Program-made: the position numbers and the translations under genes | Notes under the pieces: generated by a model | Seen by the model: only the letters and a program-made list of their open reading frames with translations | Told to the model about the DNA's origin: nothing | The model's database searches: none | Shown: in pieces, positions 5,225-63,474 of the stretch | How positions within the stretch are numbered: position 1 is the stretch's first letter | Layout: each line of letters starts with the position of its first letter | Source of the DNA: an uncultured Spirochaetales bacterium | GTDB lineage: Bacteria > UBP6 > UBA1177 | DNA length: 64,000 bases | Reading direction: 5' to 3' | NCBI GenBank assembly: GCA_902774115.1 | Contig: CACYHH010000001.1 | Span: forward strand, 604,794-668,793

Positions 5225-5325
5225 CTCAAAAACAACAAGAAAGCCGGGACAATTTTATTTATTTTTGAAAGCAAGTCAAATTTAAAATAAATATTTTATC
5301 TGTTTTTCTTTAAACAAATACGATT

Positions 5326-6372
5326 TTATGTGTAAAGGAAGAGCGAGAAAACTGCATCAATTGCAACAACCATGAATATCGAAACAACAACAGATTCCGT
5401 AGTGGCGCGACCGACTGCATCTGCTCCGCCGCGGACATTAAGCCCTTTGAAACTGCCGACTGCAAGAATTACCCACGCAAACGAGATACTTTTCATCGTG
5501 CCCCAGAATATATCCTTCATTTCGATGGATTCTATCACATCAACAAGAAATGAAGTCGGGGGAATATTGTATGCCGAAGCGATCAGGAATCCGCCGAAAA
5601 TTCCGGCGATATCGGCAATCAGCGTGAGAACCGGCATGACTGTCGTGAATGCCCAGAATTTGGGAACCAGCAGGAATTTCAAAGGCTTTACTCCCATCGT
5701 TTTGAGTGCGTCGACCTCTTCCATAACGACCATCGTACCAATTTCCGCAGCAATCGAACTTCCGGTACGCCCGGCAATGATTATCGCCGTGATAAGCGGT
5801 CCCAGCTCTTTTGTCATAACCATCGTGCTCATCATCGCGATCATGCTCTGACCGCCCATTTTGGCAAGCTGTATTGCCGCCTGCAACGCAATCGTAAAGC
5901 CGATAAGGAACGCGAGCAGGAAAACTATCGGAACAGCTAAGTAACCGATATAATAAGCGTTTTTCGTTGTATCGTTTTTAAGTATGAACTTACGGTTGAA
6001 AATCGATTCCAGCGAATAGAAAATCATGTCAACCATGATAACGAAGAAGTAGAAAATGACATCCCAGAGCTTCAGCAGCCTGCCGCCAAGTTTTTCAATA
6101 CGCGGCTCGGCAGGTTTTTCCGCATCTTCTTTTTCGCTTTTACCCTCGTCTTTCAGATAAAAAATATCGTTTTTAAGCTCTTCCGGAACTATCAGCTGGT
6201 CAGGATGTTCCTCAGCAAGCTGCCTGATGAGCGCCTTTGTTATCGAATTGAGCTGAATATTGCGGTCAACTTCGAACGCAGCACCTTTTGCAAACTGCTT
6301 TGAAAGCTCCGAAAAGGCAGCCTTGCTGTTTTCTATAGTCAAGTTATCTGGAATATTAAGTTTTTCAGTCAT
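5326..6372 (-). CDS. MlaE/YrbE-family ABC transporter permease with extended N-terminus
   Basis: The C-terminal 250 aa carry GPLITAIIIAGRTGSSIAAEIGTMVVMEEVDALKTMG, typical of MlaE. An N-terminal soluble extension of about 90 aa is present. Confidence 0.85.
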   Translation of the reverse strand: MTEKLNIPDNLTIENSKAAFSELSKQFAKGAAFEVDRNIQLNSITKALIRQLAEEHPDQLIVPEELKNDIFYLKDEGKSEKEDAEKPAEPRIEKLGGRLLKLWDVIFYFFVIMVDMIFYSLESIFNRKFILKNDTTKNAYYIGYLAVPIVFLLAFLIGFTIALQAAIQLAKMGGQSMIAMMSTMVMTKELGPLITAIIIAGRTGSSIAAEIGTMVVMEEVDALKTMGVKPLKFLLVPKFWAFTTVMPVLTLIADIAGIFGGFLIASAYNIPPTSFLVDVIESIEMKDIFWGTMKSISFAWVILAVGSFKGLNVRGGADAVGRATTESVVVSIFMVVAIDAVFSLFLYT

Positions 6373-49630: not shown

Positions 49631-50896
49631 TTATTTTCTGACTTCTTTTTCAATTTCTTTTCGAAGCCATTCTGTCAATTTCTCTTCAGAAGGAAGATTG
49701 AGTTTGTATTTTTGGATAAAAAGATTCGTATCAATGCCGTCGGTGGCATATTTAACCAGCTCTTTTCCTGCTTCGGTACACATAAGGATTCCAATCGGCG
49801 GATTGTCATCACTCTGCATTATATTGTGCCTGTAGTATGAAAGATAAAGGTTCATCTGCGCAATATCGTCATATTTGATTTTTTTCGCTTTCAGATCAAT
49901 CAGGACGTGGCACTTTAAAATACGGTGATAAAAAACCAAATCGCAGAAAAAATAGTCATCGTCAATAAGGAACCGCTTTTGGCGTGTTTCAAAACAGAAA
50001 CCGTTTCCGAGTTCGAGAATGAATTTTTCAAGATGATTTACAAGTGCTTCTTCCAAGTCAGATTCTTCAATTATCTCGTCGGCGAGTTCCATTTTTTCTG
50101 AACCGGACTGGATATATCTGCTCATTTTTTCAGGATTTCTGCTGATAGCACTCCGCTCAAAATAATTTGTCTGAATCTGTCGTTTCAATTCACGCACAGA
50201 CCATGTGCCTTTGATTATTTCAAGTTCGTAAAAAACTCTTGCAAGAGGATTTTCTACGCTCAAAATCAACGAAAAGTGTGAAAACGAAAGATGTGAAAAG
50301 AGTTTTTCCGGCGGAATTTGAAGCTTGTCATCAGATTGGGCAATCAGTGATTGCCCAATTGGTGCTTGAATTTGGCAGACACTGTTTGCCAAATTACTTT
50401 CAGCGAGATCATGTTTTAATTGTGCAGACGCTGTTTGCACAATTTGGCAATCACCGATTGCCAAATTACTTTCAAGGAGTTCCTGTTTTGATTGGGCAGA
50501 CGCTGTCTGCCCAATTGTGCAATCACTGATTGCAGTATTGTCAAGGCTCAACTCTATTGTTGGAATAAGCCTTTCATCTGTTTTGAACTCGTTCAGGACA
50601 TAGTCAAAAATCGGTTTTTTAAGAGTTCTGAAATCCAGAAAAAATTGACGATAAAGGCGCAAATTCCTGTATGAAAGAGATTTTTTGTTCAAATCTTCCG
50701 CGAGTTTTTGGAGAGTTCTTTCTCCATATTTAGCCCTGTCTTTGCCGTTCTGCTCGTAGTTTACGATATAAAAGCCGATGAGCCAGTTCCGCGCTGTGAT
50801 ATTTCTGTTTATCGCTTTTGCCGTGTTCTCTTCAAAAACAAGGTTGAGGGAACTTATTGAATTTTCAAGTTGATTGAAATCAATATTTTTTGTCAT
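49631..50896 (-). CDS. YhcG/DUF1016 family PDDEXK nuclease-domain protein
   Basis: N-terminus NRNITARNWLIGFYIVNYEQNG. Mid region FYELEIIKGTWSVRELKRQI. C-terminal DLVFYHRILKCHVLIDLKAKK is PD-(D/E)xK-like. ATG at 50896 follows GAGG. Confidence 0.8.
   Translation of the reverse strand: MTKNIDFNQLENSISSLNLVFEENTAKAINRNITARNWLIGFYIVNYEQNGKDRAKYGERTLQKLAEDLNKKSLSYRNLRLYRQFFLDFRTLKKPIFDYVLNEFKTDERLIPTIELSLDNTAISDCTIGQTASAQSKQELLESNLAIGDCQIVQTASAQLKHDLAESNLANSVCQIQAPIGQSLIAQSDDKLQIPPEKLFSHLSFSHFSLILSVENPLARVFYELEIIKGTWSVRELKRQIQTNYFERSAISRNPEKMSRYIQSGSEKMELADEIIEESDLEEALVNHLEKFILELGNGFCFETRQKRFLIDDDYFFCDLVFYHRILKCHVLIDLKAKKIKYDDIAQMNLYLSYYRHNIMQSDDNPPIGILMCTEAGKELVKYATDGIDTNLFIQKYKLNLPSEEKLTEWLRKEIEKEVRK
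50335..50534. repeat. six palindromes of about 25 nt embedded in-frame in the yhcG-like ORF
   Basis: Examples: ATTGGGCAATCAgTGATTGCCCAAT (50335-59), ATTTGGCAATCaccGATTGCCAAAT (50442-66), ATTGGGCAGACgctGTCTGCCCAAT (50491-515). On the minus strand each reads IGQxxxAQ. Confidence 0.85.
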
Positions 50897-51482
50897 CACT
50901 GACCTCAATCACACAATTTTTCTTCAAATTTTTTATATCAAAAACTATCCCCTCACAGAAGGGCTCTCCTTCATGAGTCATATAAAAAGTTGTGTGAGGA
51001 ATATCCGTTTCATAAGACCACGGAATGATTTCCCAATCATCGGTGATTTTGCTTTTTTCATACCATTTTGCCGAGATATTGTTACACTTGCCGAGTCCTT
51101 CTTTAAGAATCCAACGACCGTCTTCTTGTTCCAAATGAAAATCACCTCCGTTAAAGCAGTCTCCTTCCGCAAATATGGCACCATAGAAATCAATCACATC
51201 ATCAGAATGCCCGCATACAATGACAAGATCGTTCCTCTCTGCACATTTTCTTTCAAATTCGCAAAAACCATCCTCATCGTCGCGATTATTCAGACAAAAA
51301 GCCATTGATTTTACGGTAAATTTTTCTGTTCGCAAAAGAAGCAAATAATCAACAAGCTTTGAATAATTCCTCCCGAATTTTTCCTTTGCTTTTTCTGCAA
51401 TGATTTTGTTGTCACCGCAAACACTTGAGGCTCCTTCGATAAAAAGTTCAATCTCTTTAACGATTTGATTCAGCTTACTCAT
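50880..51482 (-). CDS. hypothetical protein (200 aa), overlapping and co-oriented with the yhcG-like gene
   Basis: GGAG RBS. Acidic and Cys-containing. Has LVIVCGHSDD but no family I can name. Confidence 0.55.
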   Translation of the reverse strand: MSKLNQIVKEIELFIEGASSVCGDNKIIAEKAKEKFGRNYSKLVDYLLLLRTEKFTVKSMAFCLNNRDDEDGFCEFERKCAERNDLVIVCGHSDDVIDFYGAIFAEGDCFNGGDFHLEQEDGRWILKEGLGKCNNISAKWYEKSKITDDWEIIPWSYETDIPHTTFYMTHEGEPFCEGIVFDIKNLKKNCVIEVSDDKKY

Positions 51483-56753: not shown

Positions 56754-56787
56754 TTGAACGGAAACAGGAATTATTTTGGGGAGTTAT
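56754..56787 (+). repeat. 34-bp direct repeat, left copy (TTGAACGGAAACAGGAATTATTTTGGGGAGTTAT)
   Basis: Identical to 57718-57751. The two copies bracket the PIN-DinJ pair. Confidence 0.9.
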
Positions 56788-57403: not shown

Positions 57404-57688
57404 ATGAGCTATACAATTCAAGTCAGAATAGATGATGATTTAAAAACCCAGGCGACTGAAGTTTTCGACCGTCTCGGTCTTGATTTTTCAACAGCAATCC
57501 GAATTTTTCTGAAAAAAAGTGTTGCGGTGAACGGCATCCCGTTCGAACTCAGAAACGAAACTCCGACGGAAGCAGCAGCCGCAGTCGAAAACATGAGGGC
57601 ATCCGCGGAAGAAAACGACATCGCGGATCTCACCCTTGATAAAATCAACGGAATCATCAACAAGGTCCGCGAAATCAGAAAAAAATAG
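57404..57688 (+). CDS. RelB/DinJ family antitoxin
   Basis: IQVRIDDDLKTQATEVFDRLGLDFSTAIRIFLKKSV is the ribbon-helix-helix DinJ signature. GGAGG RBS. Confidence 0.85.
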   Translation: MSYTIQVRIDDDLKTQATEVFDRLGLDFSTAIRIFLKKSVAVNGIPFELRNETPTEAAAAVENMRASAEENDIADLTLDKINGIINKVREIRKK

Positions 57689-57723
57689 GTCTTCGTCTAA
57701 GGTCACAATTTGTGACCTTGAAC
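57669..57723 (+). repeat. 55-bp repeat with hairpin, copy 1 (spans the 3' end of the antitoxin gene)
   Basis: GCGAAATCAGAAAAAAATAGGTCTTCGTCTAAGGTCACAATTTGTGACCTTGAAC. The hairpin arms are AAGGTCACAA / TTGTGACCTT (57699-57719). Confidence 0.85.
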
Positions 57724-57751
57724 GGAAACAGGAATTATTTTGGGGAGTTAT
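57718..57751 (+). repeat. 34-bp direct repeat, right copy
   Basis: Identical to 56754-56787. Confidence 0.9.
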
Positions 57752-57840: not shown

Positions 57841-57986
57841 TCATTTTGAATCGTCCACTGAGCAGGACCACTCTTTAGTTTGGTAATATACTCAAGAATA
57901 TTGTTTTGTCAATACTAATTTAGAAAAATTTTAAAAAATTATTTTATTGTGTCTTGTTTTGACCGAGCACGGGCTTGCCAAAAATC

Positions 57987-58013
57987 GAACTGTCGCAAAT
58001 TTTGCGACAGTTC
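57987..58013. repeat. perfect 13-bp-arm palindrome GAACTGTCGCAAA t TTTGCGACAGTTC
   Basis: Same GTCGCAA/TTGCGAC core as the hairpins in the 55-bp repeats. Confidence 0.8.
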
Positions 58014-58038
58014 AAAATGAATGTGGACGTTTGGTTGA

Positions 58039-58093
58039 GCGAAATCAGAAAAAAACAGGTATTCGTCTAAGGTCGCAAATTGCGACTTTGAAC
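58039..58093 (+). repeat. 55-bp repeat with hairpin, copy 2 (no associated gene)
   Basis: 49 of 55 nt match copy 1. The stop TAG is changed to CAG. The stem change A..T to G..C is compensatory. Confidence 0.85.
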
Positions 58094-58193
58094 AGATATC
58101 CAAATAAATTTAGATGGTTATTGTTTAAATTCAAGAGTTCGGCTTTCGTTGGATTTGATTCAATGAGTGGGATTGTTGGGTTTGTTCCAGAAC

Positions 58194-59126
58194 TTATTTT
58201 TTAATCCCAGATTTATAAAAGAGTTCTTCAATAATAGCTCGATATTTAAGTATATGAGGTTCTAAATCTCCTTTAGTGCAGCTATACCAAATTTTATGTG
58301 CAGAATAATTACCCAAATCTTTAAAATGTCTCATGTCGTTTTTTGTGCTTAACGAGAGAGCTAATTTTGAATTATTAACTGCATTTTTTATCATAGAGTC
58401 AAGCGGAACATGATGTTTTCCATCACTGGCCATTATTTCATTCTCAATGTTAGCTTTTTGATAAGATAAAACTAGCAAAATTTCTAGTAAATGGCGCATC
58501 ATTACTGCCGTGCAATCGTAAAGATTATTTTCGTAACTTGCATTGATTTGTTTACAAATGGAACCAAAACTATGTGGCAGTTCCACAAAAAGTCCTTCTG
58601 GTAAAATCGTTCCGGATTGCTTGATAGTTCTATTATCGTTTTTTATCGACTTCTTAATCTTATTATTAAATTTTTTAATTTTTTTGAACCATGTAGACCA
58701 CTCTACATTTCTCGTCTCGGTCAAAGTTTCCTCTAGAAATTCTTTTACTATTCTTTCGTTTGACCATCTTAATGACTTCAATCCCTTGACGCAAGCCTGT
58801 AACAAAACACAAGCTTCTTGCGAGTCCCACTCCATAACATATTTTTTTCCCATATTATCTATATGAACAATCTTTTGCTCAATTAGCGGAAGAGATTTAT
58901 TATGAGCGATGCTATCGATTTTTTTTAAGAATCGTTGTATTGACGCTTCGATTACTTGCCCATTCTCATCATATTCAAGATATTTTGTAGCATCATCAAT
59001 GCTGTTTACAAGCAATCTATAAGAATATTGCCGAGACAACTGATCCAAAAAGTCACGGTCCTTGTCTTTAAGTAAAAAAGGTTTGATTTTATCTTTGACT
59101 ATTGTTTCAACTTTCTTTCGCGCCAT
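58194..59126 (-). CDS. hypothetical protein with C-terminal DUF4145-like (HEPN-like helical) domain
   Basis: 310 aa with a GGAGGTG RBS, 27 nt after the upstream gene. C-terminus CTAVMMRHLLEILL ... MRHFKDLGNYSAHK fits the R..GN..aH core of DUF4145. Confidence 0.6.
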   Translation of the reverse strand: MARKKVETIVKDKIKPFLLKDKDRDFLDQLSRQYSYRLLVNSIDDATKYLEYDENGQVIEASIQRFLKKIDSIAHNKSLPLIEQKIVHIDNMGKKYVMEWDSQEACVLLQACVKGLKSLRWSNERIVKEFLEETLTETRNVEWSTWFKKIKKFNNKIKKSIKNDNRTIKQSGTILPEGLFVELPHSFGSICKQINASYENNLYDCTAVMMRHLLEILLVLSYQKANIENEIMASDGKHHVPLDSMIKNAVNNSKLALSLSTKNDMRHFKDLGNYSAHKIWYSCTKGDLEPHILKYRAIIEELFYKSGIKK

Positions 59127-59153
59127 GCAAGTACACCTCCGTAATTATTTACC

Positions 59154-60056
59154 TCAAAACAATCCTTGTATTTTCGATTGAATTAGTGCGGCTGTAATAC
59201 CAGCTCCGACTCCAATCAGATAGTCTTTCAAATCTAAAAGTGCAGATTTCACAATATTCTGCTTTTCATGCTGCGACACTTTTTCTTTGATCTCTGCTAT
59301 CATTTTCATAATAGTTTCTTTATCTTCAGACAAAATATTTTCGCTGTTTAAAGAAGACTCTATTTCAGACAGTGCTTTATTCGCTTTTTCAATAGTGTAT
59401 TGAATCTTGTTCTCATCGCCTGCAACAAATACAGAGTCTTGGACATTACCATTGATAACATTTGTATTACCATAATTATTGTAATTAATTATCTGCTGAG
59501 GAATCCGTTTCGCCGCTTCTTTTTCTTCAGAATTAAATTGCATTTCTTCTCCCAATATTCCTTCTTTTTCAAGTTTAATTGTCCATTCCAATATTGTGTT
59601 TTTCACCTGTTCAATTATTGACTTTATTTGATGTGTGCTGCAATGAAGGCAAAATTGCGTCGGCCTTTGGCACTTACACAGAGAATTTAACATTGAGTTT
59701 TCTTTAGCAGAATAATAAATTTCAAACATATCAGAATTTTTATCAAGTCCAATCAGATCACCAAGTGACTCTGTCATTTTATAATTACAGAATTTATCTT
59801 CTGTTATTTTTTTATCTATAACAACCTGAACCCATTCACTATGAAGATTCAATCCTTTCACTATCCCCTTTACCAATCGATATTCAGGAACTAGACAATC
59901 TTTGTTTGTATAACCATACAATTCTGACTGAATCCATTCATCGAATTGTTCAAAATTAAGTTTTGCAGCAATAAGATGCGCTTTTCTTAAAAGATTTAAA
60001 ACATCGCAATCTTCCTTCATCACTTCTTTTTGAAGTTCCAAAACTAGGCTGCCCAT
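59154..60056 (-). CDS. AbiTii-like N-terminal domain protein with coiled coil and C-terminal Gly-rich hydrophobic helix
   Basis: SLVLELQKEVMKEDCDVLNLLRKAHLIAAKLNFEQFDEWIQSELYGYTN..VPEYRLV matches the AbiTii-domain pattern as I remember it. The tail is YLIGVGAGITAALIQSKIQGLF. Confidence 0.65.
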   Translation of the reverse strand: MGSLVLELQKEVMKEDCDVLNLLRKAHLIAAKLNFEQFDEWIQSELYGYTNKDCLVPEYRLVKGIVKGLNLHSEWVQVVIDKKITEDKFCNYKMTESLGDLIGLDKNSDMFEIYYSAKENSMLNSLCKCQRPTQFCLHCSTHQIKSIIEQVKNTILEWTIKLEKEGILGEEMQFNSEEKEAAKRIPQQIINYNNYGNTNVINGNVQDSVFVAGDENKIQYTIEKANKALSEIESSLNSENILSEDKETIMKMIAEIKEKVSQHEKQNIVKSALLDLKDYLIGVGAGITAALIQSKIQGLF

Positions 60057-60426
60057 TTTTCATCTCCTTCAATCAATCCTACACCTTTCCTATCCTTCAA
60101 TTCCAACATCCGACCTCCAATGCGAATCAAATTGCGTTAGTTTACATAATTAGGAAGAAAAGTCAATAGTTTTTTTCAAGATATTGTGGGAAAAAGTTGA
60201 TGTAAACACAATATGCTGTTGATCGTTAAATTTTAGAGGCTGTTTCACAACAAACGGTTGATTTTTGAACAGTTTTCTTGAGGGTTTTGATGCTTTTGTT
60301 CAATGTTTTTAAGAACACATCTTTTAACAGACTGAAATCATTAAATATTTTCATCAACCATTTGTTGGTAAAGAGCCATTTTAGAACGTCTTTATTAACA
60401 TCAATAAAATGGTTGGGCAATGCTAT

Positions 60427-61323
60427 TTACCGGACGCAACAAACAGCACTTCTAGAATATTTTTTTGGAGATAAATAAAAGATTCCGGTGTGTAAAAATA
60501 TCCTGTAAGCACCCCCGTCATTTGATGTTTCTGATGACCAAAAAGAAATTTCATTATAAGGATATTGTATTCCACAGATATATCTTATTTTATATATTAT
60601 TTCGGATTCATCTTTCGTTGGAAAATGCCAATCACTATAACCGCCCAAATTAAGATTTTTTGCATATTCCATCGCTTCATCCCATTCCATACTATTTCCT
60701 ATATTTTTTTGAATCATTCTTATTGTACCGATCGGTTTTCGGAATTTTATGTAATTGCCGCAATCAATAAAATTATCATTTAATTCTTGTGCAGAAGTCC
60801 ATCCTACATCTTTCAAAAACATGCTTACAAACGCAAGCTTCTCTTGCAATCTTTCTTGTTTTCCTTGTTCCGTTACTCTTACGCAGCGTAAATTTATACG
60901 ATCAGTTACTCTTCTATCTGGAAGAGTTACACCACCTAATTGTAATTGATCTTCCTCATCATTTATTAGAAATGACATTTCCCAAAAAACCATATCTTTG
61001 TTTTTAAATGAATAAGGAGCTAAAGTAGACGACCAAAAAAATTCGTCACTTGCCTTAAATCCGTAAACATCCTGAATTTTATACATTATCCACAATTCTT
61101 CTTTTGTCGGGATGCTCCAATCATTATAACCGCCTAAATTAAGATTTTTTGCATATTCATTAGCCTCCCACCAATTTAAAGGCTTGTCAGAAAATCCTTT
61201 CTGAATCATTAGAATATTACCAAAAGGAACATGGAATTCTATATAGCTTCCATGATCAACAGCGAGCTTTTTAAATTTTCTGCGTTCAAAAAAATTAAAA
61301 ATACCTGACATTTTTTCCTCCAT
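60427..61323 (-). CDS. tandem DUF1566 (Lcl C-terminal-like) domain protein without signal peptide
   Basis: Two copies of MIQK....W.EA.EYAKNLNLGGY.DW..PTK.E. The N-terminus MEEKMSGIFNFFERRKFKK is not hydrophobic. Confidence 0.65.
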   Translation of the reverse strand: MEEKMSGIFNFFERRKFKKLAVDHGSYIEFHVPFGNILMIQKGFSDKPLNWWEANEYAKNLNLGGYNDWSIPTKEELWIMYKIQDVYGFKASDEFFWSSTLAPYSFKNKDMVFWEMSFLINDEEDQLQLGGVTLPDRRVTDRINLRCVRVTEQGKQERLQEKLAFVSMFLKDVGWTSAQELNDNFIDCGNYIKFRKPIGTIRMIQKNIGNSMEWDEAMEYAKNLNLGGYSDWHFPTKDESEIIYKIRYICGIQYPYNEISFWSSETSNDGGAYRIFLHTGIFYLSPKKYSRSAVCCVR

Positions 61324-61527: not shown

Positions 61528-61575
61528 TATTTGGCAGTCACTGATTGCCAAATTGTGCAGACGCGTCTGCACAAT
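61528..61575. repeat. two intergenic palindromes of the same family as those in the yhcG-like ORF
   Basis: ATTTGGCAGTCAcTGATTGCCAAAT (61528-52) and the perfect AATTGTGCAGACG|CGTCTGCACAATT (61550-75). Confidence 0.85.
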
Positions 61576-61672: not shown

Positions 61673-63235
61673 TTATTCGTCTGATTTTTGCGTATTATTT
61701 ACTTCCCAATGACCGCCGTTTGATTCACCTTTTCTTTGTATTCTGCCTGTTTCTTTAAGTTTTTTGATAGCTATTTCAGTTTGTTTTTTTGTTATATTCA
61801 AAGATGTCATTATCTCTGGTATTGTTATATCATTTTTTGAGGAAATAAGCAGAAGAACAGCGTCCATTCTCTGTAGGATCTCATCATTTTTCTTAAGCCC
61901 TTTTTTATCGCCTTTTTTATCGCCTTTTTCAGAAAGGAGATAACTTTCATCTTCTGTCACATCGTCAAAACCCTCTTTTACAAACAGTCTTGTCACAAAA
62001 TAACTGTGGTCGGCATCAGTGATAAATTCGGGCAACGGAGATCCGTTCTTTTCCAACGCCCTCAATATTTTTCCAAAACCTGTATTTCTTCCCTCTGTCA
62101 AATGAAGTTCTTTCAGGTAGTCGCCTATGCGTCTGTTGCGGTATCTTCTTGCGCAGACAGAAAAAGTTTTCAATGCATCGACTGTCACAGATCTGTCAGG
62201 TCCGGGAAAACTCAATATTTCTATTTTTTCTCTGGTAACACGCACTTCTATCGGCTCTCGGATGTCGTAAGCCTTGTGATAAACAGCGTTGGCAAGACTT
62301 TCTTCTATCGCCGCGTAAGGAAAATTATAGAATCTGTCTGCTTCGGCACGATCCGGATGTTTCACTATTTTTTCTTTGATAACATTGTTCCGGATATATC
62401 TTAGCGCATCCCGCAGCTGCTGATGCAACGGACCTCTGAATATTGTTTCAACGATATCGTCGCCTCCGACACCGTCAGGAAATTCAACTATATCAATCTG
62501 GGTGCACGGTATATACTTTTCGGGTTCCATGCTGAAAAAAAGAAGCCCGACATTTTTCGGTTTCATATACTCCGGCATCGAATTGGATATATCCATTTTC
62601 ATGCACAGCTGATTAAAATCCATTTTATCGACATCGTTGACTAAATCACTCCCGATTTCTTTCAGGTAAGCCTTGATCAGAGTGATATTCAGATCGGTCA
62701 TGTCGGCTTTGTGGCATATCCGGTCGTCGAACGGAATCTGATTCGACAAGGAAAAAAGTTCTGTCGTTTCTTGTTCGGAAGGACGCACCGTGCTTGCCAT
62801 CTTTCTTATCCAGTAAACCGTTTCCTTTGAGTGCTTTGCCGTTCCTTTGTCATAACTAAAATCCGCCGGAGAGCGGTAAGGTCTCAAAACTCCGCCCGGA
62901 CACCATATAACGATCAGTTTTGTGTGATCATCATAATCAACAGGTTCAACTATCGGCAGATAATCGGGGCTGATAAGTTTGCACTTGTTGAGCAAATCCT
63001 TCATAATATTGTCGATTTCAGACAAATTCAGTCCTTTAACCGGATATTTCGGAATTCCGTTTTCTTCCTCTACACCAAGAATAATGTAGCCGCCGCCCCA
63101 GTTATCCAAATCATTGGCAAAAGCGGTAATTGTTTTGAGTGACGCTTCTGGTTTCCATGATTCCTTGAATTCTATTCTTGCCCATTCAACAACATTTCCC
63201 GAAAGCAAGGTGTGAATATTTGTCGGTAATGCCAT
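61673..63235 (-). CDS. AlbA_2 (Schlafen-like) / HATPase_c_4 domain protein with C-terminal wHTH (often mis-annotated as RecG-like)
   Basis: EWARIEFKESWKPEASLKTITAFANDLDNWGGGYIILGVEE is the AlbA_2 core. ANAVYHKAYD is present. C-terminal HTH is ITIPEIMTSLNITKKQTEIAIKKLKETGRIQRKG. GGAGAA RBS precedes the ATG at 63235. Confidence 0.75.
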   Translation of the reverse strand: MALPTNIHTLLSGNVVEWARIEFKESWKPEASLKTITAFANDLDNWGGGYIILGVEEENGIPKYPVKGLNLSEIDNIMKDLLNKCKLISPDYLPIVEPVDYDDHTKLIVIWCPGGVLRPYRSPADFSYDKGTAKHSKETVYWIRKMASTVRPSEQETTELFSLSNQIPFDDRICHKADMTDLNITLIKAYLKEIGSDLVNDVDKMDFNQLCMKMDISNSMPEYMKPKNVGLLFFSMEPEKYIPCTQIDIVEFPDGVGGDDIVETIFRGPLHQQLRDALRYIRNNVIKEKIVKHPDRAEADRFYNFPYAAIEESLANAVYHKAYDIREPIEVRVTREKIEILSFPGPDRSVTVDALKTFSVCARRYRNRRIGDYLKELHLTEGRNTGFGKILRALEKNGSPLPEFITDADHSYFVTRLFVKEGFDDVTEDESYLLSEKGDKKGDKKGLKKNDEILQRMDAVLLLISSKNDITIPEIMTSLNITKKQTEIAIKKLKETGRIQRKGESNGGHWEVNNTQKSDE

Positions 63236-63474
63236 ATATTTTCTCCACATTAACAAACCGTCAAATTTAATACTAAAAATTTTAATTATAAAATCAATAA
63301 AAAATTATTATTGCAAAATTTATTGATAATTTCTAAAATTTAATCGCAACAATATTGTCAAAAAACTTGTTTTTAGTTTTTGAAAATGGAAAACGGATAG
63401 CAATCCAGTATCTGCCAACCCGCCCCCCCTACAAAGCAGCAAATTCATAACCTGAAAAATTCTGAAAATTTTTG

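Follow-up and report, generated by a model that had tools for sequence, protein, structure and literature searches.

Layout of the two genes

We analyzed two adjacent genes, here called gene 1 and gene 2, on the minus strand of contig CACYHH010000001.1 (GCA_902774115.1) from an uncultured rumen bacterium of the UBP6 lineage. The stretch examined, hereafter the window, is 64,000 nt long. Gene 1 is predicted to encode a single-chain relative of the lactococcal AbiT system, and gene 2 a helical module joined to a HEPN-like domain. The two genes look like stacked, separable modules and not like an obligate two-gene system. The genes and their parts are listed below; residue numbers refer to the encoded proteins.

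59154..60056, minus strand: gene 1, open reading frame (ORF) of 300 aa; single-chain AbiT-like protein with an AbiTii domain, a linker and an AbiTi-like tail
59502..60050, minus strand: AbiTii alpha+beta domain of gene 1, residues 3-185, assigned from Pfam and AlphaFold; presumed phage-sensing module
59406..59486, minus strand: Asn-rich linker of gene 1, residues 191-217; predicted local distance difference test (pLDDT) score <50, predicted disordered
59160..59393, minus strand: AbiTi-like four-helix bundle of gene 1, residues 222-299, assigned from the PADLOC AbiTi model and AlphaFold; includes the 'Gly-zipper-like' last helix
59127..59153, minus strand: intergenic spacer of 27 nt; carries the ribosome-binding site (RBS) of gene 2 and lies inside the recombination junction zone
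58194..59126, minus strand: gene 2, ORF of 310 aa; helical N-module and DUF4145-like HEPN domain
58632..59126, minus strand: all-helical N-terminal module of gene 2, residues 1-165; matches independently of the C-domain
58197..58613, minus strand: C-terminal DUF4145-like HEPN domain of gene 2, residues 172-310, assigned from profile searches and Foldseek
58296..58322, minus strand: candidate catalytic motif K269-D-L-G-N-Y-S-A-H277 of gene 2, from family invariants

An initial annotation of this DNA had described two minus-strand ORFs with a gap of 27 nt and an RBS each, located in the part of the window with the lowest GC content and next to a toxin-antitoxin (TA) cassette, and this description holds in every particular. 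As read from the sequence, the RBS of gene 1 is GAAGGAGA at 60063-60070, 6 nt from the ATG, and that of gene 2 is GGAGGTG at 59134-59140, 7 nt from the ATG. A scan of the region for terminator-like hairpins found no such site between the two genes. The lowest GC content of the window, 0.329, was measured in the block 58001-60000. The adjoining cassette, on the gene 2 side, was identified in a profile search of the window proteins as PIN_3 (E=3.4e-19) and RelB (E=1.8e-15).

Gene 1: an AbiTii domain and an AbiTi-like tail

The AbiTii domain proposed for gene 1 in the initial annotation received strong support. Residues 3-185 match Pfam PF18864 at E=2.7e-43, with 148.8 bits against a cut-off of 27.6, and the corresponding PADLOC model at E=3.9e-44. 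The family alignment shows that W41, E45, G48, Y49, P57, Y59 and R60 are invariant within this domain. We identified 384 full-length homologs, nearly all of them about 298 aa long. The AlphaFold model has an overall pLDDT of 82, and scores of 80-94 were obtained for the AbiTii domain, in which helices are mixed with strands. The Asn-rich linker that follows corresponds to indel-rich and poorly conserved columns of the alignment.

Residues 197-297 of gene 1 align to positions 3-111 of the 114 positions in the PADLOC AbiTi model, at a modest E-value of 3.1e-4. The tail of 36 out of 37 aligned relatives also matches this model (best E=6.6e-9), and a standalone 301-aa homolog from a Brevibacillus plasmid matches both AbiTii (6.4e-53) and AbiTi (3.2e-13). 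Because the match recurs in these relatives and in the Brevibacillus homolog, we consider gene 1 to encode a single-chain AbiTii-AbiTi protein. Judged by these profile matches, gene 1 is a fused form of AbiT that has both AbiT components in one protein. In the AlphaFold model the tail consists of helices at residues 222-237, 243-261, 266-283 and 286-299, with a pLDDT of 76-89 for the last one. The sequence of the C-terminal helix, LIGVGA..TAALIQ.K.QGLF, is conserved in the family, and G284 and A285 are invariant.

The peptide features quoted in the initial annotation are all present in gene 1, and the C-terminal helix among them is conserved, but the Cys cluster CKCQRPTQFCLHC is specific to this lineage. 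The family consensus at this site is ..P.PTQYALH.S.H. A zinc site at the cluster was considered and rejected, since the cysteines are not conserved.

Searches with the gene 1 model against PDB using Foldseek gave nothing significant, with generic four-helix bundles retrieved for the tail only, and gene 1 had no match in PHROGs. Neither gene 1 nor gene 2 had a meaningful match in NCBIfam. A tblastn search of gene 1 matched 130 plasmids, over the AbiTii domain only, and AbiTii-domain proteins of about 300 aa were found to stand alone on plasmids. No annotated Lactococcus abiT locus was among the plasmid matches of this search, and the comparison with AbiTi rests on the PADLOC model. A tandem arrangement was seen in one locus (L067, 2193-5201), in which an HsdS gene is followed by two full copies of the gene 1 family and a third ORF that matches the linker and tail only.

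Gene 2: a helical module and a HEPN-like domain

Gene 2 has 365 homologs, mostly 309-314 aa long, and defines a family of 1,323 representative clusters at E<=1e-3. The AlphaFold model, with a mean pLDDT of 87.5, consists of two all-helical domains at residues 1-165 and 172-310. The C-domain is extremely conserved, as seen from the segments QINASYENNLYDC, MRRLLE and FKDLGNYSAHKIWY.

The initial annotation had assigned this domain to DUF4145 and to the HEPN-like domains. The assignment holds for the family and for the predicted fold, but the window protein itself scores below the Pfam cut-off for DUF4145 (13.1 bits against 23.1, E=0.1). DUF4145 was matched at the same region in all 37 gene 2 relatives analyzed (best E=1.7e-5) and DUF5677 in 36 of them, and some relatives have PF13643 among their precomputed annotations or are named 'DUF4145 domain-containing protein' by NCBI. 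Comparison of the model with PDB using Foldseek identified the HEPN protein 2hsb as the sole non-spurious match, with a probability of 0.84, a TM score of 0.67 on the target and a root-mean-square deviation of 3.7 over 128 columns. The two-domain query accounts for the poor E-value of this match. As modeled, the C-domain has the helical-bundle fold of HEPN proteins.

K269, N273 and H277 are invariant in the gene 2 family. Of the Arg and His residues highlighted in the initial annotation, R266 of 'RHFKDLGNYSAH' is not conserved, and the motif is K269-x7-H277. Of 76 C-domains of the wider family, retrieved from 1.84 billion representative proteins, 55 have R and 17 have K at the first position of the motif, and the x7 spacing is that of R146 and H154 in RAZR. 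The catalytic Arg-His dyad of HEPN proteins has the form Rx4-6H, which is R-x7-H in DUF4145 and RAZR. The Arg position of the dyad is occupied by K269 in the gene 2 clade, and it is also K in P0254, a fusion protein described below. By analogy with the DUF4145 ribonuclease (RNase) RAZR, we predict that gene 2 is an RNase of the HEPN type.

The two domains of gene 2 are independent modules. The 149 N-module matches listed from the representative search include 22 proteins of about 165-230 aa that consist of the module only, 24 proteins of about 430 aa in which it occupies a middle position, and 14 in which it is combined with another C-terminal domain. The module is found fused to HNH (P0282, P0286), ahead of Pkinase (P0293) and after NAD_synthase and DnaB_2 (P0382). 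The HNH form, a nuclease protein of about 430 aa with the module in its middle part, matches phrog_16986 at 2e-64. The C-domain, in turn, also occurs behind a different N-terminus, in proteins about 243 aa long. Such behavior is typical of the N-terminal sensor and adaptor domains of conflict systems (PMC3710099), and by this analogy the N-module may be a promiscuous domain of the adaptor or sensor type.

Additional searches with gene 2 gave little. The profile had only chance matches to PDB sequences (E>=0.24), a Foldseek search of the model against the viral structures in BFVD gave nothing, and the only match in PHROGs was a marginal one to a 'DNA binding protein' (E=0.0076). No match was obtained by tblastn against the plasmid and phage collections. 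HEPN relatives of about 245 aa were observed in Cyanobacteria, Acidobacteria and Proteobacteria (L031-L064; for example L035, L036, L042, L050, L051 and L064). Upstream of these there is usually a gene of about 190-230 aa without a Pfam match, with a 4-nt overlap between the two genes (5246-5827 and 5827-6552 in L035), and the two may represent a conserved two-gene operon of their own.

Conservation of the two genes as neighbors

The conservation of the gene pair was analyzed in two surveys. A profile scan for gene 2 in one genome per species provided 57 loci, in which an AbiTii gene was sought within 6 kb, and a metagenome profile scan for gene 1 provided 80 loci that form 32 clusters at 90% identity. 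An AbiTii-family gene was located within 6 kb in only one of the 57 gene 2 loci (L009). This locus is from a metagenome-assembled genome of the UBP6 lineage, and its gene 2 is 98% identical to that of the window. Likewise, a gene 2-like gene was present in only one of the 80 gene 1 loci (L072), where the common part is the HEPN domain only and the N-terminus of the DUF4145-like protein differs from that of gene 2. The pairing is limited to a few related rumen contigs and L072. The initial annotation had named a lack of conserved adjacency elsewhere as evidence against its two-gene module, and such a lack is largely what we observed. No PADLOC system model matched the pair, which the initial annotation likewise did not equate with a named, characterized defense system. 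Since each family mostly occurs without the other, we interpret the locus as two stacked modules and not as a new obligate two-gene system.

The related rumen contigs display several versions of the locus. Four of them (L146-149) contain an Lcl_C gene, gene 1 and gene 2 in this order and with the same 27-nt spacer. Another (L150) has the RelB/LCM flank of the window at 93-95% DNA identity and contains gene 2, and gene 1 is absent. L010 contains Lcl_C followed by gene 2 only, and in L151 Lcl_C and gene 1 are followed by AbiD (PADLOC 1.6e-79).

The alleles recombine at the tail of gene 1 and the start of gene 2. For gene 1 and gene 2, respectively, the protein identities are 91% and 62% to L146, and 62% and 98% to L009. 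At the DNA level, the identity to L146 is 96-100% at 59369-60418, 83-87% at 59069-59368 and 53-64% at 58628-59068, the last of which corresponds to the N-domain of gene 2. The identity to L009 is 98-100% from 59066 downwards.

Two further observations concern the edges of these loci. In L150, RelB directly abuts gene 2 and the PIN gene is absent. Lcl_C is the constant upstream neighbor of a variable defense slot that is occupied by gene 1 and gene 2, by gene 2 alone, or by gene 1 and AbiD. It is located at 3740-4630 in L146, 2350-3249 in L151, 4860-5750 in L010 and 2281-4206 in L012; in this last contig the Lcl_C protein is longer, and its gene shares 19 nt with that of the gene 2 homolog. Lcl_C may be an anchor gene or a part of the system.

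Linkage to restriction-modification genes

Both families mostly occupy the 3' end of restriction-modification (R-M) operons. Counting genes for HsdR, HsdM, HsdS and N6_N4 methylases, we found R-M genes directly upstream in at least 10 of the 21 full-length gene 2 loci and in at least 17 of the 32 gene 1 clusters. The stop and start codons of the R-M genes and the gene 1 or gene 2 relatives often overlap. This position behind the R-M genes suggests second-line modules that would act once restriction fails. Gene 1 and gene 2 of the window have no R-M genes next to them.

The genes downstream of the gene 1 relatives vary and include those for RmrA-like proteins with helix-turn-helix (HTH) and M78 domains (15 loci), DUF2971/PDC-S31 (7 loci), HEPN_Apea (4 loci), AbiD and DUF4145. 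The RmrA-like gene, of 384 aa, is located 43 nt 3' of the 15 gene 1 relatives (PADLOC RmrA 8.4e-21), which points to a possible role of AbiTii-AbiTi proteins as the toxin in systems of the RosmerTA type. Loci with this arrangement include L077, L087-L091 and L115.

Interpretation and alternative explanations

We favor, with moderate confidence, the interpretation that the locus contains two separable genes of the abortive-infection (Abi) type, stacked in a recombination-prone defense slot and probably co-transcribed, without forming an obligate two-component system. The AbiTii domain of gene 1 would sense a phage product, as suggested by the escape mutations from AbiT in Lactococcus, which map to the major capsid protein and early genes (PMC13064643), and the protein would act through its AbiTi-like bundle. 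Gene 2 would be a latent HEPN RNase controlled by the N-module, which upon activation would cleave RNA, arrest translation and abort the infection. Both genes would provide back-up immunity when restriction fails. The domain architectures, the occurrence of each family without the other, the linkage to R-M genes and the mosaic of alleles are observations, whereas the co-transcription, the RNase activity, the phage trigger and the abortive phenotype are predictions.

Several observations weigh against this interpretation. A DUF4145-like gene lies 19-27 nt behind a member of the gene 1 family in four combinations of alleles (the window, L146-149, L001-4/L009 and L072). Moreover, the 336-aa protein P0254, encoded inside an hsdM-hsdS type I operon, combines an AbiTii domain (Pfam 6.9e-23) directly with a C-domain of the gene 2 type that has 60-70% identity to the gene 2 family. 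An assembly artefact was rejected, as the identical protein is present on contigs from three independent datasets; P0254 was given less weight because it is a singleton cluster. Fusions of AbiTii to the DUF4145-like HEPN domain c2405, with a 'conserved H but lacks R', and to the Ymh HEPN domain have been published (PMC3710099). P0254 and the published fusions make the association of AbiTii with HEPN a recurrent evolutionary theme, and the recurring pair together with the fusions fits a functional link better than pure coincidence. Finally, the substitution of K for R in the gene 2 clade implies that the predicted RNase activity is not assured.

Two side observations were made at loci of this kind. 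The gene that follows P0254 at the expected place of hsdR (L154, 4210-6321) encodes 704 aa and has no Pfam annotation on record. A 168-aa ORF located after a 244-aa AbiTii gene (L158) was tested as a candidate solo N-domain of gene 2, and is not one.

The alternative that survives best, although we find it rather unlikely, is a true two-component system in which a phage product sensed by the AbiTii domain of gene 1 leads to activation of the RNase of gene 2 in trans. The pair would then correspond to the single-chain AbiTii-HEPN fusions, divided over two genes. The tight spacing of 27 nt, the separate RBS of each gene and the lack of a terminator between them are consistent with this alternative, as are the four adjacent allele combinations, with L072 sharing the HEPN part alone, and the fusion P0254 inside an hsdM-hsdS operon. 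However, about 98% of the surveyed loci of each family lack the other family, and the syntenic locus L150 retains gene 2 in the absence of gene 1. At the junction the alleles have been shuffled, signs of co-adaptation are absent, and each protein looks self-contained, given the AbiTi-like component of gene 1 and the separate N-module of gene 2. The singleton status of P0254 also counts against a split system.

A broader version of this idea is unlikely but worth stating. AbiTii and DUF4145 HEPN domains could form a plug-and-play partnership of sensor and effector, arranged in cis (P0254, c2405) or in trans (the window, L146, L009, L072), with interchangeable alleles. As guards in R-M operons they would be activated once restriction has been bypassed, following the logic of PrrC with entirely different parts, and the N-module of gene 2, also present in phage HNH proteins and in kinases, would serve for docking or for binding of the trigger.

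The initial annotation had proposed that gene 1 kills by disrupting the membrane with its C-terminal Gly-zipper-like helix, which we consider improbable. The conserved segment LIGVGA..TAALI, with small-xxx-small spacing around the invariant G284 and A285, and a hydropathy of 2.2 in the 13-residue core would fit such a function. However, the best 19-residue window has a hydropathy of 1.27 in gene 1 and a mean of 1.46 in the family (range 1.11-1.78). This mean is below the threshold of 1.6 that is usual for transmembrane segments in windows of this length and similar to the best value for the soluble-looking gene 2 (1.36). The helix is also the fourth in a compact bundle predicted by AlphaFold, and the region is homologous to AbiTi, which is reported to have a weak structural similarity to an endoribonuclease domain and not to a membrane protein (PMC13064643).

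Very improbable, finally, is a TA-like pair in which one protein is constitutively toxic (the gene 2 RNase or a RosmerTA-type gene 1) and the other neutralizes it until infection: HEPN proteins are often TA toxins (PMC3710099), 15 gene 1 relatives are located upstream of the antitoxin-type RmrA-like gene and the locus adjoins the PIN/RelB cassette, but both families usually lack the other or any conserved small partner, such that an unneutralized toxin would be lethal, and no antitoxin-type domain was found in either protein in the Pfam, PADLOC and NCBIfam searches.

Signals and genes flanking the pair

Four additional features were recorded around the two genes.

57985..58015, minus strand: terminator-like hairpin downstream of gene 2, with a 14-bp stem followed by a T-run
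60139..60206, minus strand: two sigma-70-like promoter matches upstream of gene 1, TTTACA-17-TATCTT and TTGACT-16-TAAACT; weak evidence
60427..61323, minus strand: Lcl_C (DUF1566-like) gene upstream of gene 1, Pfam Lcl_C E=8.2e-19; context only
61673-63256, minus strand: protein of 527 aa with Schlafen-AlbA_2, HATPase_c_4 and winged HTH domains; neighbor of the defense-island type

Nine terminator-like sites were found in the region, as compared to 2.0 expected, whereas the total of promoter-like matches in the whole region is no higher than in shuffled sequence. The Lcl_C gene has two internal repeats and no obvious signal peptide. The 527-aa protein matches PADLOC models of pAgo-associated (2e-17) and SIR2-PNTD (8e-13) proteins.

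The PIN_3/RelB cassette is bracketed by a perfect direct repeat of 34 nt (56754-56787 and 57718-57751). The 3' end of RelB together with a hairpin (GGTCACAATTTGTGACC) is duplicated, with 78% identity between 57669-57751 and 58039-58121, and the second copy directly adjoins the stop codon of gene 2. The duplicate and the 34-nt repeat look like the scar of a cassette insertion or duplication. Integron attC sites were considered for these repeats and rejected: the duplicated RelB 3' end, the short hairpin and the 34-nt repeat are not attC-like.

A palindrome of 25-26 nt, ATTTGGCAGnCACTGnTTGCCAAAT, has 11 matches as compared to 0 expected. Five copies are located at 50335-50516, in the linker of a gene for a YhcG/DUF1016 PDDEXK nuclease (49631-50908, minus strand). 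A sixth copy is located upstream of Lcl_C at 61529-61553, and position 61529 is the exact edge of the DNA homology between the window and L146/L151.

Significance

AbiT has been known since 2002 and is still mechanistically unresolved according to a review from 2026 (PMC13064643). A widespread family of proteins of about 300 aa with both AbiT components in one chain would offer a simpler, single-gene handle on this system. Gene 2 defines a sizeable uncharacterized family that combines a DUF4145-type HEPN domain with a mobile helical module. If the link between AbiTii and HEPN is functional, it joins two poorly understood Abi families and extends the idea of RNases as guards of R-M systems; otherwise, the locus represents ordinary stacking of genes in a defense island.

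Comparison with known systems

The AbiT system of Lactococcus lactis consists of AbiTi (127 aa) and AbiTii (213 aa) (Bouchard et al. 2002, via PMC13064643). Gene 1 resembles it in having an AbiTii domain and a region homologous to AbiTi, and the low GC content, the defense-island context and the presumed outcome of abortive infection are also similar. It differs in that the lactococcal system has two genes, abiTi followed by abiTii, whereas gene 1 is one chain of 300 aa with AbiTii preceding AbiTi. Gene 1 has an additional Asn-rich disordered linker, and its host is an uncultured rumen bacterium. PADLOC detected no similarity to AbiTi in gene 2, and the two genes together do not correspond to a two-gene AbiT.

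RAZR is a DUF4145 protein and a phage-activated nuclease of single-stranded RNA, with the catalytic residues R146 and H154 in an R-x7-H arrangement (PMC13017515). The C-domain of gene 2 is likewise DUF4145-like, as in RAZR (PD-T7-4), and the wider family shares the R-x7-H spacing. RAZR and gene 2 also share the order of a non-catalytic N-module and a C-terminal HEPN domain, and both fit the description of an Abi RNase, which for gene 2 is a prediction. The differences are that RAZR has an N-terminal zinc finger of the Cys4 zinc-ribbon type, whereas the N-module of gene 2 is unrelated, all-helical, about 165 aa long and without a Cys4 motif, and that the gene 2 clade has K in place of R. No match to the PD-T7-4 profile was obtained in PADLOC at E<=1.

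The published c2405 and Ymh fusions resemble the locus in that AbiTii is associated with a DUF4145-like HEPN domain that keeps the H and lacks the R, a pattern that K269-x7-H277 of gene 2 fits; the comparison of gene 2 with c2405 rests on the published description (PMC3710099). In the window, the domains are instead on separate proteins, each of which has an extra domain, the AbiTi-like tail and the helical N-module. Some similarity was also observed to the PADLOC candidate system PDC-M14. The tail of gene 1 matches PDC-M14B, at E=1.7e-3 for the window protein and down to 8.2e-11 for its relatives, but the tail alone aligns, to positions 168-252 of the 267 in the model. As gene 2 matched no PDC-M14 component in PADLOC, the pair is not PDC-M14.

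PrrC and RloC are anticodon nucleases that are embedded in type I R-M operons (discussed in PMC3710099). The gene 1 family, the gene 2 family and P0254 typically have a similar location, within such operons or at their 3' end. A latent RNase that would back up restriction, with a presumed guard relationship, is a similarity in implied logic only. Gene 1 and gene 2 differ from PrrC and RloC in having no ABC-ATPase domain, no sequence similarity to them and no adjacent R-M genes in the window. DUF4145 genes in R-M operons were described earlier (PMC3710099). The kinds of domains are known, and what is new is the fused form of AbiT in gene 1 and the architecture of the DUF4145 HEPN protein in gene 2.

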